Assembly (NCBI GenBank): GCA_951406725.2
Contig: OX597825.1
Span: forward strand, 20,832,001-20,896,000
Source of the DNA: Octopus vulgaris
Taxonomy: Eukaryota
Reading direction: 5' to 3'
DNA length: 64,000 bases
The notes below the pieces were generated by a model that was not told where the DNA came from, ran no database searches, and saw nothing but the letters and a program-made list of their open reading frames with translations. Of this stretch, positions 3,053-61,693 are shown piece after piece. Position 1 is the first letter of the stretch; every line of letters begins with the position of its first letter. Position numbers and translations under genes: made by a program.

Positions 3053-3255
3053 CGGGAAGCTTTATGAAAATAGACAAAAGACGAAGGCAGGTGGAAAACA
3101 AACGAACAATTGTATTAGTATGGCGCTCAGGAAATATAAATAAAACAAGTCTTTAACGTTTCGAGCCTACGCTCTTCAACAGAAAGATACACAGAGAGAA
3201 AAAAACACAGAAAGAAGGAGAGAAAAAAAATGCGTGCAGTAGCTAACGAATCAAC
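3051..3255 (-). mobile_element. Short (TA)n-embedded element carrying a hammerhead-like motif (Penelope-like/retrozyme-type)
   Basis: Homologous to 15030-15235 and 54700-54870; contains the motif at 3150-3187. Confidence 0.65.
3150..3187 (-). ncRNA. Minimal type I hammerhead-like motif (A6U core variant)
   Basis: UCUUU CUGUUGA A GAGC-GUAG-GCUC GAAAC GUU AAAGA: 5-bp stem I, 4-bp stem II, palindromic ACGU stem III. Confidence 0.6.
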
Positions 3256-4084: not shown

Positions 4085-4616
4085 CATACAGATATGTATA
4101 TGTGTATATAAATATATATACAAATATATATATATATTTTGGCAGATCAAGATTGGAGCCTGGTGCAGCCATCTGGCTTGCCAGCCTTCAGTCAAAATCG
4201 TCCAACCCATGTTAGCATGGAAAGCGGACGTTAAACGATGATGATGATGATGATGATGATGATAAATATATATACACACATACAAATATGTCTATGTGTG
4301 TGTATATGTATATATATATATATACACACATACAAATATGTATATGTGTGTGTGTGTATATATATATATACAGAGGGAGAGAGATGTCCTCATTAGTGCA
4401 ATAAAAGTTTTGATCTTGTGAAATAAATGGAAAAGTGAATATAACAGATTTTATGTTTTCAGTGACTAAAATAGCCCCAATATGATATAATTGCTTCAGT
4501 TTTAACAAATGGCTTCAGATCAAATGCCTTGCCAAACAAGTACTCTAAAGTACTTGCCAAACAAATACTCTAAACTATGTGTGTTTGTGTGTGTGTAGTT
4601 AATATATTTTTAGATA

Positions 4617-51213: not shown

Positions 51214-51453
51214 TGTATATATATAGACACGAACACACACACACACACACATACACACACACACATATATATATACTTCATGTTTTTGTATTTGGTTTGC
51301 AAGATTCTTTATGTGAAGATCTGTGTTGAAATATATTTTGTTGTATCTGGGAGAGTCATGATTCTGCCAAGACATAACAAAATATATATATATATATTAC
51401 TGAAATGTACTTGCATAGCAAGTGACCTGATCTGAGATTGTGTGCTGAATCAA

Positions 51454-51745
51454 AAACAATTGCAGTGTGGAAGGTGTTTTTAAGCCATTTAAAAACACAT
51501 AAAAACCCGTTAGATTCACTTCTACATTTAAATTTAATTTGCCAAAATATTTTTGTTGCTTTGAGACCACGACCTGTTCACTGACATTTGTCAGTGAATA
51601 GGTCATGGAATTTTGTCTGTGAATAGGTCACGGTCTTGAAGCAACAAACATATTTTGGCAAATTAAATTTAAATGTAGAAGTGGATCTAACGGGTTTTTA
51701 TATGTTTTTAAATGGCTTATTAACACCTTCCACACTGCAATTGTT

Positions 51746-51746
<1 letters not shown>
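51454..51746. repeat. About 133-bp inverted repeat with a short tandem duplication at the centre
   Basis: AAACAATTGCAGTGTGGAAGGTGTT...CACTGACA versus TGTCTGTG...AACACCTTCCACACTGCAATTGTTT. Confidence 0.93.
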
Positions 51747-51806
<60 letters not shown>

Positions 51807-51812
51807 GTATAT

Positions 51813-52200
51813 ATCATCATCATCATCATCATCATCGTTTAGCGTCCGTTTTCCATGCTAGCATGGGTTGGACGGTTCTACTGGGGTCTGTGAAGCCAGA
51901 AGGCTTCATCAGGCCCAGTCAAATCTGGCAGTGTTTCTACGGCTGGATGCCCTTCCTAACGCCAACCACTCCGTGAGTGTAGTGGGTGCTTTTTACGTGC
52001 CACCCGCACTGGTGCCAGACAGAGCTGGCAAACGGCCACGAACGGATGGTGCTTTTTATTGTGCCACCGGCACGAGGGCCAGGCGAGGCTGGCAACGGAC
52101 ACGAAACGGGGCGGTGCTGGCAACGGTCGCGAAACGGAAAGTTCTCTTACATGCCACCGGCACTGGTAACACATCTGCAATTTCCATTGATCGATAAAGA
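51813..52200 (-). mobile_element. SINE-like family C, long CpG-rich copy
   Basis: (CAT)n tail plus body with repeated GTGCCACCGGCAC modules. Confidence 0.88.
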
Positions 52201-52373
52201 ATAGTGATGACAACAACCATCATTAACACAAATTATGCAAAAAGTCCTGACTCATTGACTCAGGTGTTGAGTAATAAAAGAGTGTGTTTCATTAACCTAC
52301 AATGTCTTCAATATACCTCCATCTTCTCCCTCTCTCTCTCTCTCTTTGCGAGTGTGTGTGCGTGCTTGGTTGT

Positions 52374-52429
<56 letters not shown>

Positions 52430-52465
52430 ATGAAATGTACCTTTATGCCAATAAATAGTTTTTTG

Positions 52466-52506
<41 letters not shown>

Positions 52507-52653
52507 CGCTATTTCGTTATTCAATCAATACTGAAAAGATATCATCTATAATACCCACATAGAAATAAATTAAATATATTATAATTAGTGTACTAAATAG
52601 AATCTTTTTCCTTGTTAGCTTGGAATTTTTATATTCCCTAACTATTAATAATA

Positions 52654-52684
<31 letters not shown>

Positions 52685-52733
52685 CTAGCATGGAATGCGG
52701 ACGCTAAATGATGATGATGATGATGATGATGAT

Positions 52734-52894
52734 ATAGGAGAGGAAAAAATAATAAGGCAGAATGCTAAACTGAAAGTAAATCTTAATAAAAATGGGTGTA
52801 TGAAAGATTATAAGAAAGGAATTCAAACTGGCTTTCATCGCAAGGCAAATTCTTTCAGTTTAGCATTCTGCCTTATTACTTTTTCCTCTCCTAT
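52734..52894. repeat. 43-bp inverted repeat
   Basis: ATAGGAGAGGAAAAAATAATAAGGCAGAATGCTAAACTGAAAG and its near-perfect reverse complement. Confidence 0.92.
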
Positions 52895-52936
52895 CATTTC
52901 TCCACGTGTGGTTAACACAACCCCACCATTTACTGA

Positions 52937-52970
<34 letters not shown>

Positions 52971-53278
52971 ATCGTCGGCATCATTTAATGTCTGCTTTCC
53001 ATGAGTTGGAAATGGCATGTGTTGGATGGTTTGACAGGAGCTGGGAAGCCAGAGAGCTGCACCAGGCTCCAAATGTCTGTTTTCTCAGGGTTTCTACAGT
53101 TGGACGTCCTTCCTAACACCAGCCACTTTACAGACTCTACAAGGTGCTTTTTACATGGTACCGACACAATTGCTTCCTACATGACATCAGCACAGATGCT
53201 TCTTATGTGAATCCAGCACAGGTGTTTTTTATGTGGCACAAACACACCTGCTTTTTACATGGCATATATATATATATA

Positions 53279-53667
53279 CTAGCAGTATCACCTGGCGTTG
53301 CTCGGGTTTGTAAGGGAAATAACTATATAAGCATTTTTGGAGATGTAAAGTATAATAGCCATCTCAATATAGCTAACCACAAAGGGGGGTGTTACTGTAG
53401 CTTTTTACGTTCTGAGATTTAATAATACATTTTTAGAGAGTTACTTCCCTTATATAATAGGAAAAAAATGCATTAAAAATGGGAAAAAATTATGGTAAAT
53501 TTTTTTTTAAATTGTAGACTCATCGTAGATGCGGGCTAATACCCAGAAGGGCTCGATATGAATCACGACTATAAGATACCAGCTTTTGGTTACACTGCAC
53601 TGCAAAATGTGGGAGTAGTTAGGAATCTAAATCATAAGACACACAACTTCACTTTTATATATAAAGA
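53279..53667 (-). mobile_element. Non-autonomous Helitron
   Basis: Same family as 3269-3662; TC start, hairpin plus CTAG end. Confidence 0.92.
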
Positions 53668-53764
53668 TAAGTAAAAATTTAGATTCAGACGAATTAGGTA
53701 CCTAAATTGAGGCACTAGAATTTAGTACGGTATTATCCATACAGTTTCAAAATAAGGTGATTAA

Positions 53765-53948
53765 AATCAAAAGAAGAAACAGGATATCCAGAGGTAATGC
53801 AGTATGATCATTTCAAGCAACTCCATTTAATTGAACAATGCAACCATTTACATAAATTGATGTAAATGGTTGCATTGTCCAATTAAATGGAGTTGCTTGA
53901 AACGCTTGTACTGCATTACCTCTGGATATCCTGTTGCTTATTCTGATT
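53765..53948. repeat. Long fold-back: about 88-bp arms, about 6-nt loop
   Basis: CAGGATATCCAGAGGTAATGCAGTA...CAACCATTTACAT / ATGTAAATGGTTG...TACTGCATTACCTCTGGATATCCTG. Confidence 0.93.
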
Positions 53949-54049
53949 ATATATATATGTATGTATATATGTATGCAAAAATATATATATCATCGGTAAA
54001 ACATAAATCCCAAAAAGAAGCACACTCTAAGTTATAGAGCAGTGTATGA

Positions 54050-54245
54050 TATAAATAAAGTTACATAACGCTGGTTTATGGGATTACCCTGGATTTCACA
54101 TATGCTTTATGACATATCATTAGATCCCAAACATGTTTGCTTATTTGGTTTGGGATCTGATGATACACCATAAAGTTAAGTTATGAGCTTTACAGATGTG
54201 AAACCCAGTATAATTCTTTAATCCGGTCTTACCTAATTTTATTTG
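54050..54245. mobile_element. Divergently oriented (inverted) pair of hammerhead-bearing elements, same family as 46553
   Basis: Minus 54080-54128: GGGAU CUAAUGA...GAAAUCCAGGGUA AUCCC; plus 54152-54217: GGGAU CUGAUGA...GAAACCCAGUAUA AUUCU. Confidence 0.65.
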
Positions 54246-54279
54246 TGTGTGTGAGTGTGTGTGTGTCTACATATATATA

Positions 54280-54453
54280 CTGTTGTGTCTGGGGAGAGTC
54301 ATTCTCTTTTAGTGCCTTATAATTTAACACACTCACCGATGAAATTTCCACTTATTTCCTTCTATATTTTTCTGTAAATAAGTGGTAATTATACCAGTGA
54401 GTGTGTTAAATTATAAGGTACTAAAAGAAAATGACTCTCCCCAGACACAACAG
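54280..54453. repeat. About 78-bp inverted repeat of a dispersed AT-rich element
   Basis: CTGTTGTGTCTGGGGAGAGTCATT...ACACACTCAC versus GTGAGTGTGT...AATGACTCTCCCCAGACACAACAG; same family at 51285-51365, 58195-58380 and 60280-60650. Confidence 0.88.
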
Positions 54454-54527
54454 AATATGCTTCAACACATGAACTCACATAAAGAATCTTGCAAACCAAA
54501 TCCAAAAACGAGATATATATATATATA

Positions 54528-55097
54528 TGCACAGGCGTGGCTGTGTGGCAAGAAGCTTGCTTCCCAACCACATGATTCCAGGTTCAGTCCCACTGCATGG
54601 CACCTTGGGCAGGTGTCTTCTACTATAGCCTCAGGCCAACCAAAGTCATGTGAGTGGATCTGGTAGATGGAAACTGAAAGAAGCCCATCATCATATATGT
54701 GCCATGATTAACTGCTAAATCCACAAGTTTTTCTATTCTTCCTTTCTGTTGAAGAGCGTAGGCTCAAAACATAAAAGACTTTCTCACCTTCCTGAGCATC
54801 AAACTAATACACCTGTTTGTTGTTTGTACACCTGTCTTCGTCTTTTGTTTCTCTGTAAATTTCAACTATATATGTATATATATATATGTTTATGTGTCTG
54901 TGTTTGCCCCCCAAAATCGCTTGACAACCAATGTTGGTGTGTTTATGTCCCCACAACTTAGTGCTTCAGCAAAAGAGACTGATAGAATAAGTGCTAGGCT
55001 TACAAAGAATAAGTCCTGGGGTTGATGTGTTCAACTAAAGGTGACGCTGTAACATGGCCAGAGTCAAATGACTGAAACAAATAAAAGAATAAAAGAA
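54528..55097 (+). mobile_element. SINE family A with a hammerhead-type element (about 54700-54870) in its spacer
   Basis: The inserted piece contains CUUU CUGUUGA A GAGC-GUAG-GCUC AAAAC AUA AAAG. Confidence 0.85.
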
Positions 55098-55211
55098 ATG
55101 TGTGTGTGTGTGTGTATATGATTGATTCATGATTGATTGATTGTAGTTTCTAAAATACACAGTAATGTTTATATATATATATATAAATATATACTGTATA
55201 TATAAAAATAT

Positions 55212-55242
<31 letters not shown>

Positions 55243-55243
<1 letters not shown>

Positions 55244-55630
55244 CTTTTTACTCTTTTACTTGTTTCAGTCATTTGACTGCGGCCATGCTGGAGCACCGCC
55301 TTTTAGTCGAGCAAATCGACCCCGGGACTTATTCTTTGTAAGCCCAGTACTTATTCTATCGGTCTCTTTTGCCGAACCGCTAAGTGACGGGGACGTAAAC
55401 ACACCAGCATCGGTTGTCAAGCAATGCTAGGGGGACAAACACACACACACACACTTATATATATATATACATATATACGACAGGCTTCTTTCAGTTTCTG
55501 TCTACCAAATCCACTCACAAGGCATTGGTCAGCCCGGGGCTATAGCAGAAGACACTTGCCCAAGATGCCACGCAGTGGAACTGAACCCGGAACCATGTGG
55601 TTGGTTAGCAAGCTACTTACCACACAGCCA
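55243..55630 (-). mobile_element. Full-length, young SINE family A
   Basis: CpG-intact 3' half. Confidence 0.92.
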
Positions 55631-55708
55631 ATACTGTGTATTTTAGAAGCTTGTTTTGCACACAAGCAGTGTTTGTGTTTATAAGACGTGTTTGTGTGTG
55701 TATGATAT

Positions 55709-55741
<33 letters not shown>

Positions 55742-55996
55742 ATGATGTCATGTTGGCCTGAGTACACCACTTAAGATGTAATCCAGGACAACCTGTTATG
55801 GACTGGGATTCATTGTCTGTGGTGACTAAGCCAGCACTCCCTCAAACAAGGCTGGCCAAAGTGAGGTGGTTCGCTAATGACTCTTAGCTGTGGCTAAGAA
55901 GTGCTTAGGATCAGAAACTAGATGACTACTAGAGAGAGAGATATAGATAGATAGATAGATAGATAGATACATATCATATATTATTTATTATTTATA

Positions 55997-56032
<36 letters not shown>

Positions 56033-56069
56033 TGTATGTATGTATGTATGTATGTATGTATACATATAC

Positions 56070-56107
<38 letters not shown>

Positions 56108-56792
56108 CGTATTATGTGTGTGTGTATGTATGTATGTATGCATATAGATACATATATATAATGTATATATTATATATATACATGTATGTTTGTATGCATG
56201 TATGTATGTGTGTGTGCAAGAGAGAGAAAGAAAGAAAGGAAGGAAGGAAGGAAGGAAGTAAAAGAGACAGGTTACTGCTAGGAGTTCAAGGATTATTTTC
56301 GCCTTGATCTTTGACAGTCACGCTTTGTGGATCACCAAAAGACATAATCATCATATGATTACATAGCAAGATCAGAGACAGACAAACAGACAGACAGTCA
56401 GTCACACAGAGAAGAAGAGGGCAAGAGAGAAAGAGAGAGAGAGAGAGAGATGGGTGAGATGAGAAAGAAAAACAAGCGGGGAGTGATAGACTTAATTGTT
56501 ACCAAATGTCTCTTATGACCGACTAATTTGTAATTCTCAACTGAAATTATCCGGTCCTCCAATTTATTAGTGAAAATTAGAGCATTCTTAAAGATCCTCT
56601 CTGTCTCTCAGATCGTATTACATTCGTTCAAAATTTGTTCTATTCTTGTGGTTTATGTACTTTTTTTTTTGTATTTCCTGTTGTTGTCTTTTTTGTTTTG
56701 TTTTGTTTGTTTTTTTGTGTTTTTTTTTTTTTTTGCTGAACCCCATCCATCTATTTTCACAATGTTACTCATTAAACAGTATTGATGGAAGA

Positions 56793-57090
56793 TCATCATC
56801 ATCATTATCCTCATCATCATCTTTATCATTGTCATTGTCCTCATCTGTCATCATCCTCATCATCATCTTTATCATCGTCATTGTCATCATCTGTCATCAT
56901 CCTCATCATCATCTTTATCATCGTCATTGTCATCATCTGTCATCATCCTCATCATCATCATCATCATCATCATCGTTATCATCGTCCTCATCATCATTGC
57001 CATCGTCATCATCCTCGTCCTCGTCACCTACTTCTTCTTCCTCCCCCTCCTCTTCATCATCATCATCATTCTTATCATTCTCGTCATCAT
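56793..57090. repeat. (CAT)n-derived array with a 46-bp higher-order repeat x3
   Basis: CTGT marker at 56845, 56891 and 56937. Confidence 0.88.
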
Positions 57091-57502
57091 TATTTAATGT
57101 CCATTTTGTCATGCTCACACATATTGCACGAAATTTGACTAGGTGGATTTCTCTACAGTCAGATGCCCTTCTTTTTTGCCAAATTTCCCTTGCTTCCAAA
57201 TATGGTAATGTTTTCCCCATGGCCAGCCATGTTTTCATGGAAGACTGGAAACAAAGGACACCCCCACCACTCGTTTGATGATGACACTCATTTTCAACCA
57301 TCACACAAAATCAAGACAAGGGGACAATAACACACACACACACATACACATACAATGGGCTTCTTTCAGTTTCCTTTGGTCAGCCCAGAGCTTGAGTAGA
57401 AGACACTTGCCCAAAGTGCCATGCAGTGGGACTGAACCTGAAACCATATGGTTGGGAAGTAAACTTCTTGACCACACAGCCATGCCTGCACATTTACATT
57501 GA

Positions 57503-58574
57503 CCCTTAAACATTTAAACTGCCCTAAATATTCTACCTGTCTTATGCTGAAACTGACCAGATTCAGCCTCTCACACCTACTCTGCAATTCATTCTAAAAC
57601 TAAACAATCATGGTGCAGCTGTGGCTGTTTAGTAAGTAGCTTGCTTCCCAACCACATGGTTCCAGGTTCAATCCCACTGCATGGCGCCTTGGGCAAGTGT
57701 CTTCTACTATAGCCTCAGGCTGATCAAAGCCTTGTGAGTGGATTTGGTAGATGGAAACTGAAAGAAGCCTGTCGTATATATGTGTGTGTGTATGAGTTTG
57801 TCCCCCCCCCCCCCCACCACCACCATCACTCGACAACCAATGTTGGTGTGTTTACGTCCCTATATCATAACGGTTCGGCAAAAGAGGCCGATAGAATAAG
57901 TACTACACTTACAAAAAATAAGTCCTGTGATCAATTTCTTTGGCTAACACCCTTTAAGGTGGTGCTCCAGCATGGCCACAGTCAAATGATTGACACCAGT
58001 CAAAAGAATAAAAACAGAATGTCTTCAAAACTTTGAGGCTACAAAAAATTATATGATCAAGTAGAAAGATATTGTTTTTCAATGTGTAAATACTGATAGA
58101 ACAGCATGATAGACTCGAACTCACATCCCTTCAATTGGTTGCTGACAGATTTTTCTGCTCTGTAAAGATTTTATTCTATATATGCTTATTTCATTTTTGG
58201 ATTTGGTTTGCAAGATTCTTTATATGAGTTCGTGTGTTGAAGCATATTCTGATGTGTCTGGGGAGAGTCATTTTTTTTTTTGTGTCTTATAATGTAACAC
58301 ACTCACCGGTAAAATTTCCACTTTTTTCCTATTTTTATTGTCCCAAAATTTTCGTTGCCTCTTGCAACCTTTTCAATAGCTTTGACTCTATATATGCTAT
58401 TCTATCAGTATTTACACGTTGATAAATATTTTTCTTTCTACTTGTACTACAGTACATTTCAGTGCTTCAAAATCAAACTTATGTTTGTTTATATATGATG
58501 TAATAGATTATCAATTTTTAAAAACGTGGATAAAAAAAGCATTATATGTGATAAATTAATTGAATGCTAAAGGG
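57503..58574. mobile_element. piggyBac-like MITE fragmented by nested insertions
   Basis: TTGA|CCCTTAAACATT ... AATGCTAAAGGG|TTAA; left body homologous to 59449-59575; SINE A at 57612-58016 and an inverted-arm element at 58058-58444 lie inside. Confidence 0.6.
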
Positions 58575-60242: not shown

Positions 60243-61693
60243 TTGATGATAATGATGATGATGATGAAATATAAGGTTATATTTTGTTGTGTCTGGGGTG
60301 AGTCATAATATCTATTTCTTTACTACCCACAAGGGGCTAAACACAGAGAGAACAAACAAGGACAGCCATAGGTATTAAGTCGATTACATCGACCCCAGGG
60401 CATAACTGGTACTTAATTTATCGATCCCGAAAGGATGAAAGGCAAAGTCGACCTCGGCGGAATTTGAACTCAGAACGTAGCGGCAGATGAAATACCTCAA
60501 ATTTTTTCGCCTGGTGGGCTAACGATTCTGAGTCATAATATCTTAATGCCTTATTATCTAACACACTCACTGGTTTGATTTTCACTCATTTATTATTTAC
60601 ATTTTCTATTCCAAATTTTTCATTGCTTTTACAACCTTGTCAATGAATGTTAACTCTATAAGGTTATAATTACTCAAAAATTTAAACACAGGAAATGGAA
60701 ACAGTCATATTACAAACCAGAGTTAGATTACATGAATGCATGCAATTCTAGCCATGATATATATCTTCACAAATACTATTGGTTATTGTTACAAAAGAGG
60801 ACACAAAACAGGAAATTTTTTAAGTAACTGATTCTCCAAAGTAGATTTCTATGGAGAGGTTGACATGAACACAGTCATGTCCAGTAAGTGATACCATACA
60901 ACAGAAGAGTAAGGGAAAATACCATTTTTGTTTTTTCTTTGTGTGAATCAGGTAATTATTAATCATCAATGGTTTTTAATTGCCTAAACTTTTCTTGAAG
61001 CATCCTTTGTTTCATGCATTTATTAATATTGTTATTAACGGTCGGCAAATGAAAGCTTTAAGTTTGACAGTGGAAGGACTGGTAATTTGATCTGGGCTAA
61101 TATTAGTGAATAGAATATTTTAATCATTAAAGAATTGACAGGTAATGTCCTTGATAGTGGTATTAATGCAATTTAGTTCTTAAATTACAGAAATTATGTG
61201 AAACAGATATTGGATAAAGTGAGTAAATAATACAAACATAGACATGGCTGTGGTTGTGTGGTAAGGACTCTGCTTCCCAACCACATGGTTCCGTGTTCAG
61301 TCCCACTGCATAGCTCCTTGGGCAAGTGTCTTCTACTATAGCCTCGGACCAACCAAAGCCATTTGAGTGGATTTGGTAGACGGAAACCAAAAGAAGCTTA
61401 TTATGTGTGTGTGAGTGTGTGTATGTCTGTGTCTGTGTGTGTGTGTGTGAGTGTCTGTGTGTGTGTGCTCATGTACCCATGTATGTGTTGGTCCCCCAGC
61501 ACTGCTTGACAACCGGTGTTAGTGTGTTTATGTCCCTGAAACTTAGCGGTTTGACAAAAGACGCTGATACAATAAGTACCAGGCTTTAAAAAATATTTCG
61601 TGGGGCTGGAGGTTGAGACATTTGACTAAAATTCTTCAAGATAGTGCCCCAGCATAGCCACAGTCCCACAACTGAAAGAACTACAAGAAGAAA

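Follow-up and report, generated by a model that had tools for sequence, protein, structure and literature searches.

Minimal hammerheads with exchanged 3-8 pairs, probably maintained through selection for RNA folding, in Penelope-like element remnants of Octopus vulgaris

Two short motifs on the minus strand of a 64,000-nucleotide stretch of the Octopus vulgaris genome (assembly GCA_951406725.2, contig OX597825.1, positions 20,832,001 to 20,896,000; hereafter the window, whose own numbering is used) resemble hammerhead ribozymes and carry U3-A8 and G3-C8 at core positions 3 and 8 in place of C3-G8. Are these cores chance products of decay, or states inherited by families of mobile elements? 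A preliminary description had taken them for double changes that preserve the 3-8 pair in independent families, and for signs of selection for catalysis in the source elements. We consider it fairly probable that both motifs are minimal type I hammerheads, carried by short remnants of the terminal repeats of Penelope-like elements (PLEs) from a single clade, and that U3-A8 and G3-C8 are states inherited within families. What has likely preserved them is selection on the folded RNA of the source elements, which probably cleaves itself slowly. Published sources are cited by accession below, and statements about them refer to the parts of those papers that were available.

RESULTS

Sequence and fold of the two motifs

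The letters and coordinates reported for both motifs in the preliminary description agreed exactly with the window sequence. Residues are numbered by the hammerhead convention. Positions 58343 to 58379 (-) read as a complete minimal type I hammerhead, with U3 at 58376 and A8 at 58371, a stem I of 3 pairs, a stem II paired at 5 of 5 positions, GAAA, an additional G following A9, the self-complementary AAUU, and U17; the cut is predicted between 58346 and 58345. The layout is as in the published PLE hammerheads (PMC4209133). At 51541 to 51585 (-), the G3 (51581) and C8 (51576) core is present as described, in a decayed hammerhead that reads AAAA instead of the GAAA of its family (G12 to A at 51554) and has one stem II pair broken (4 of 5 remain). 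The preliminary description gave the AAAA letters without remarking on them. A folding test of this copy gave no motif fold (z = +1.96, with 200 of 200 shuffles folding equally well); stems I and II of a family-typical copy fold at -15.4 kcal/mol. G12 acts as the general base of the hammerhead, and the 2'-OH of N8 also has a catalytic role. The 51541 hammerhead is probably inactive, to judge from its letters. Since its family, here called B, reads GAAA in 22 of 36 repeat arms, though these were chosen for similarity to the window copy, and since the sites varying most in the family are CpGs (one stem I site excepted), we regard it as a decayed member.

The core of a minimal hammerhead ribozyme (min-HHR), that is, UGA-N-N-A and GAAA with a pairable N3 and N8, was found in the 58376 copy and in family-typical B copies, and is broken in the 51581 copy by A12. 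The stems likewise show G10.1-C11.1 and one extra nucleotide after A9, with 5 of 5 stem II pairs in copies of families A (that of the 58376 motif), B and E. Stem I has 3 pairs in family A and 7 in family B, and stem III is a short palindrome (AAUU in A, AAUAUU in B) with U16.1 and with U as H17. An Rfam scan at E <= 1 gave no hammerhead family among the 150 of 251 rows listed, all of them microRNA rows driven by microsatellites, and a PDB sequence search gave no match.

Positions 3 and 8 across the genome

Each motif lies near the 5' end of a dispersed repeat of about 200 nt, with 2022 candidate copies of family A and 1883 of family B in the 2.8-Gb genome. One scaffold pattern, split by the base at position 3 and matched exactly against the genome with reversed patterns as control, gave 13,985 matches versus 3 in the reversed controls. 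By position 3 these were A 275, C 2,036, G 7,342 and T 4,332 (reversed controls 0, 0, 1 and 2); another exact pattern had 10,847 matches versus 0 for its reverse. For each class, position 8 was then tallied by hand in the 100 rows listed first; the rows are ordered by genome position and are not a random draw. G3 rows had C in 95, G in 3 and U in 2; U3 rows had A in 88, G in 10 and C in 2; C3 rows had G in 82, A in 17 and C in 1; and A3 rows had C in 57, A in 22, G in 18 and U in 3. Scaled from these rows, an estimated 89% of the motifs are Watson-Crick at 3-8, versus 39% under independence, with genome totals of about 7,000 G3-C8, 3,800 U3-A8 and 1,700 C3-G8; mismatched states are minorities only. 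The two positions thus do not vary independently, as the preliminary description had expected, although the pairing is not strictly Watson-Crick, given that U3-G8 lineages exist. Its further statement, that a CUGANGA search misses the U3-A8 and G3-C8 motifs, was borne out.

Because copies are not independent, families were taken as the counting unit. Among arms found by DNA similarity, family A had U3 and A8 in 43 of 43 each, and family B had G3 in 35 and C8 in 34 of 36; the full catalytic core is the majority state in both, and sister families retain C3-G8. Across families the sequences of stem I, stem II and the stem III palindrome differ and their pairing is retained. A descriptor left free at positions 3, 7 and 8 was run over 1.87 Mb of fetched DNA, in which A and B are enriched by the fetching, and the families were sorted by eye: 8 of 8 hammerhead-shaped families were Watson-Crick at 3-8 (5 C-G, 2 U-A and 1 G-C), versus 1 of 10 other repeat families. 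In 980 kb of evenly spaced genome stretches, a strict descriptor gave 6 matches, all C3-G8 and one locus on both strands, with 2 in the reversed control; no family A or B copy passed it, though decayed copies were present, and this sample is therefore too small for family counts.

U3-G8 is the main state in two minor lineages, each recognisable by a loop of its own (loci L359, L360 and L241 among them); the lineage with a GAAU-type loop is represented by pattern matches and by no fetched locus. No G8 occurred in 81 rows of the main family A, and in family B G8 was about as frequent as U8 (2 and 1 rows). Older relatives of family B (L304, L323 and L297) carry C7 or A7 together with C8, and a few rows read G3-U8 or A3-U8. 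Given these few rows a fourth 3-8 pairing may exist; an A3-U8 family was not established (3 of 100 listed A3 rows).

Relationships among the variant cores

An unrooted tree was built from the region downstream of the core in 36 hand-picked copies; an earlier tree from a looser pattern was dropped, being swamped by unrelated repeats. The C3-G8 copies grouped with support of 99/98 and the C8 copies, that is, family B with three older relatives, with 100/99, while the U3 group (88/88) is not firm. U3-A8 is two transitions away from C3-G8, and G3-C8 two transversions. The sequences suggest that U3-A8 likely arose from C-G through a U3-G8 wobble; the U3-G8 lineages were amplified, and the wobble was therefore tolerated in source elements. 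G3-C8 is common to B subfamilies with different loops, and C8 also occurs in the older relatives. The proposal of double changes in independent families thus stands in part: U3-A8 and G3-C8 are family states, and an unrelated PLE also has U3-A8, whereas A and B belong to one clade.

Association with Penelope-like elements

The 58376 motif lies in a solo terminal repeat (pLTR) of a family A PLE at 58189 to 58389 (-), with a tail of about 57 nt; longer copies of this repeat follow an open reading frame (ORF) for a reverse transcriptase (RT) and a GIY-YIG-like endonuclease (EN). The 51581 motif belongs to the tail-bearing arm of a family B pLTR remnant at 51397 to 51586 (-), as delimited by repeat comparison. 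Facing it at 51611 to 51746 (+) is a second, inverted arm without the tail, more decayed and with a G3..U8 core (inverted repeat of 133 nt, 92%). Copies of families A and B end at either of two 3' positions some 57 nt from each other, have a fixed 5' start 11 to 21 nt upstream of the core, and frequently occur as inverted pairs in which one arm only carries the 3' extension. Together with 5'-truncated and inverted copies, a one-ended tail and AT-rich targets, these are traits of endonuclease-bearing PLEs. A retrozyme without long terminal repeats was considered and rejected, the window copies being solo or inverted and not head-to-tail tandem units each with a hammerhead.

On the upstream side, longer family A copies run on through a stretch that is rich in microsatellites, resembles an intron and ends in AG, as far as the end of a GIY-YIG-like ORF. 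In this stretch (L256 upstream of 2380; L003:1055-1502) a branch-point-like CTGAC and the terminal AG lie just upstream of the hammerhead, and most short family A copies start at that AG. At 17 of 20 loci retrieved with the GIY-YIG-like ORF-end peptide, the family A motif was found within the fetched flank, downstream of the ORF end. One of the 20 carries a 665-amino-acid (aa) RT-EN frame, which had a weak RVT_1 match in Pfam (E = 0.008, below cut-off) and no GIY-YIG hit, and which can be aligned in both RT and EN with a Pfam-positive PLE protein. For this frame, 182 homologs were found at E <= 1e-20, some with PF01541, the nearest named one being labelled Octopus vulgaris (62% identical). Family A thus has an RT followed by a C-terminal GIY-YIG-like EN, upstream of the pLTR. 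In its RT (L276:2517-4511), motifs A and B are separated by a long insert even though the EN is C-terminal; such inserts are tied mainly to elements with an N-terminal EN (PMC8557442).

Within the window, positions 58190 to 58271 (-) likely hold the first ORF codons (MTLPRH...), ending where the tail ends and 92% identical to a family copy's peptide; their role as an ORF start is suggested by analogy with a lizard element (PMC11167929). At 51400 to 51488 (-) lie what are likely the first ORF codons of family B; this copy has two in-frame stops there, and the peptide is homologous to that of family A. Family B is joined to the clade by this homologous peptide and by the common scaffold; the clade's ORF-start peptides match the N-termini of distant homologs weakly (best E = 0.006). 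A second U3-A8 family has its motif about 880 nt downstream of an RT plus GIY-YIG ORF of 781 aa that is open over its full length in many copies. Its protein has about 25% local identity with that of family A, and we therefore treat the family as a separate origin. It is a young two-ORF PLE (L137:1663-4006 and 4883 (+); L139:268-3968) with a 479-aa ORF ahead of the 781-aa one, a U3-A8 hammerhead without the extra nucleotide, and tandem repeats in its 3' region.

Ends of copies and RNA reads

The 5' ends of genomic arms were counted with the arm at the centre of each search left out. In family A, 24 of 102 arms begin at -13, upstream of the motif; in family B most of 63 arms begin between -5 and -18, where -18 is the query edge. 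RNA reads mapped to a copy of family B ran in both directions about equally, from libraries whose strandedness is not given, and confirmed the fixed 5' start. None of the RNA runs was listed as containing the window copy.

Other features of the window

An 11-bp repeat at 58176 to 58186, found again at 58388 to 58398, is likely a target-site duplication of the family A insertion; it shares two letters with the fixed 5' start of the element. The insertion is also flanked by a 33-nt inverted repeat (91%) at 58075 to 58107 and 58394 to 58426. Repeat comparison further delimited an inverted pair of family A arms at 54275 to 54515, truncated downstream of the hammerhead, and, at 51265 to 51359 (-), a family A fragment that comprises ORF start and tail but no hammerhead. 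Sequence comparison placed an older, partly decayed family A relative with a U3..A8 core (N7 = C) at 60530 to 60657 (-). A weak match to the clade's ORF-start peptide at 4462 (+; E = 0.01) is likely an old fragment of another family. At 3150 to 3182 (-), a different repeat family carries a C3-G8 hammerhead with A6 changed to U; the commonest cores in its cluster carry U6 (16 of 31) or C4 (5 of 31). The window as a whole is dense in microsatellites and holds several tRNA-like dispersed repeats (families D14-D20), presumably short interspersed nuclear elements.

DISCUSSION

Selection on the fold and its likely purpose

Selection on the fold is suggested by the copy counts with their controls, by the family states, and by stems that stay paired across families. 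Catalysis in the source elements, as the preliminary description had proposed, is likely. In the mechanism that we propose, the element's protein would begin cDNA synthesis at two internal sites, both within the first ORF codons, and copying would run back through the uncut hammerhead to the RNA 5' end. The products would be thousands of solo and inverted repeats of about 200 nt that then decay neutrally, with selection limited to a few source elements. The palindromic stem III might let two motifs pair as a dimer, with slow or protein-aided cutting, for which there is precedent (PMC4209133, PMC6765202), and cutting would probably trim long read-through transcripts.

Several observations weigh against this interpretation. 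The 3-8 pairing speaks for selection on the fold and not directly on cleavage, and genomic copies, to judge from their ends, derive from uncut RNA. Internally truncated arms starting <= 3 nt from the predicted cut numbered 1 of 23 in family A and 1 of 13 in family B, with chance expectations of about 1.9 and 1.1, and the reads of three RNA runs, mapped to a family B copy, showed no pile-up of ends. Published metazoan minimal hammerheads cleave poorly in vitro (PMC4209133). The G3-C8 copy in the window itself lacks G12, changed at a CpG. Families A and B form one clade, so that their changes are separate while the families are not unrelated, and only about three independent double changes can be counted, with a chance probability of about 0.04 if rates are equal and about 0.1 once a transition bias is allowed for. 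The U3-G8 lineages were amplified: a G8-fixed pattern that excluded G3 had 126 matches, with U3 in 86, C3 in 11 and A3 in 3 of 100 listed. Finally, no RT-EN ORF of family B's own was found among the 3 long frames inspected from at least 150 peptide matches, none of which continued.

The fold could have been selected for something other than cutting, as a structure that binds or positions the element's protein or that acts in splicing or translation near the RNA 5' end, with the 3-8 pair kept for shape. The uncut origin of the copies speaks for this, as do the dispensability of cleavage for in vitro insertion of the lizard element (PMC11167929) and the place of the motif, which lies 11 to 21 nt inside the inferred 5' end of the RNA and about 100 nt ahead of the ORF start, so that cleavage there would come at a cost. 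We nevertheless hold it to be unlikely, since the majority letters of A and B make up the whole catalytic core, including a G12 and a cleavage-site layout that a pure scaffold does not need, and since fungal PLE hammerheads cleave well (PMC4209133).

A bolder variant of our interpretation, to which we give little credence, is that the clade walked its 3-8 pair through C-G, U-G, U-A and G-C, and that the exchanges act as a brake on cleavage. Slower cores would then spare the RNA 5' end, which would have let families with G3-C8 and U3-A8 multiply beyond their C3-G8 sisters. If so, G3-C8, a pair otherwise met as a laboratory mutant, would exist in nature in a catalytically active form.

It is more doubtful still that the variant cores go back to accidents in founder copies, with relaxed or dead ribozymes that successful master elements carried along and that pair by chance. 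The few independent events would fit this, as would a U3-A8 state reached by two transitions, the spread of U3-G8, a family B G8 that is about as common as the transition U8 (2 versus 1 rows), and Naiad PLEs, which reportedly thrive without canonical hammerheads (PMC8557442). G3-C8, however, takes two transversions and is common to B subfamilies with different loops, with C8 already in older relatives; the stems covary across families, and mismatched 3-8 states stay in the minority. Chance matches or decayed CUGANGA copies in palindromic DNA-transposon repeats like miniature inverted-repeat transposable elements, to which the long inverted repeat at 51454 to 51746 and the unfolded B copy might point, are very improbable and were rejected, given the tail on one arm only, the variable 5' truncation, the link to an RT-EN ORF, families near-uniform for the variant core, and reversed-pattern controls of 0 to 2.

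Comparison with known systems

Selection on a hammerhead fold in source elements, the interpretation that we prefer, has its closest parallels in the min-HHRs of PLEs from Schistosoma mansoni and other metazoans (Cervera and De la Pena 2014, PMC4209133). The octopus motifs share with these the position in the pLTR, the extra nucleotide between 9 and 10.1, G10.1-C11.1, the palindromic stem III, and solo and opposite-strand copies; the extra nucleotide is G in the octopus families, whereas the published consensus has H. U3-A8 is reported in about 1,300 PLE-type motifs of S. mansoni, and the 56 rows of Fig. S3 in that paper include two U3-A8, one U3-G8 (Saccoglossus) and no G3-C8. Unlike in that set, C-G, U-G, U-A and G-C all occur here in one clade of one genome. 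Natural covariation from C3-G8 to U3-A8 was also described by Perreault et al. (2011, PMC3088659), where U3-A8 is the only variant named in the text. G3-C8 appears as a laboratory variant in PMC3884650, and the available parts of bioRxiv 2026.07.22.740005, PMC10085705 and PMC2920678 held nothing further on 3-8 variants. A natural G3-C8 was not found in full-text literature searches, which did not extend to Lunse et al. or Przybilski and Hammann, and a literature search found no study of octopus hammerheads. Provisionally, therefore, the G3-C8 family and the wobble lineages are new here, the U3-A8 half being already published (PMC3088659, PMC4209133).

As for the elements themselves, inverted, 5'-truncated copies with a tail at one end are the known PLE layout (PMC8557442). 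The Neptune and Nematis clades (Craig et al. 2021, PMC8557442) have a C-terminal GIY-YIG after a CX2-5CxxC motif, and a CxxC linker is present in family A too; compared by description, the family A protein differs from them in the long insert between its RT motifs.

The Poseidon element PAc of the green anole (Frangieh et al. 2024, PMC11167929) is alike in its two internal starts of reverse transcription, which define the tail, and in insertion from uncut RNA, and differs in that its ORF starts inside the hammerhead instead of about 100 nt downstream. In its hammerhead the C3G/G8C exchange partly restores cleavage; the pair known there as a laboratory mutant is natural in octopus family B. CUGANGA descriptors are blind to thousands of such motifs per genome, and ribozyme counts in animal retroelements are therefore too low. 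Sister families that differ at 3-8 on one scaffold offer a natural series for asking whether, and how fast, PLE hammerheads are selected to cut.

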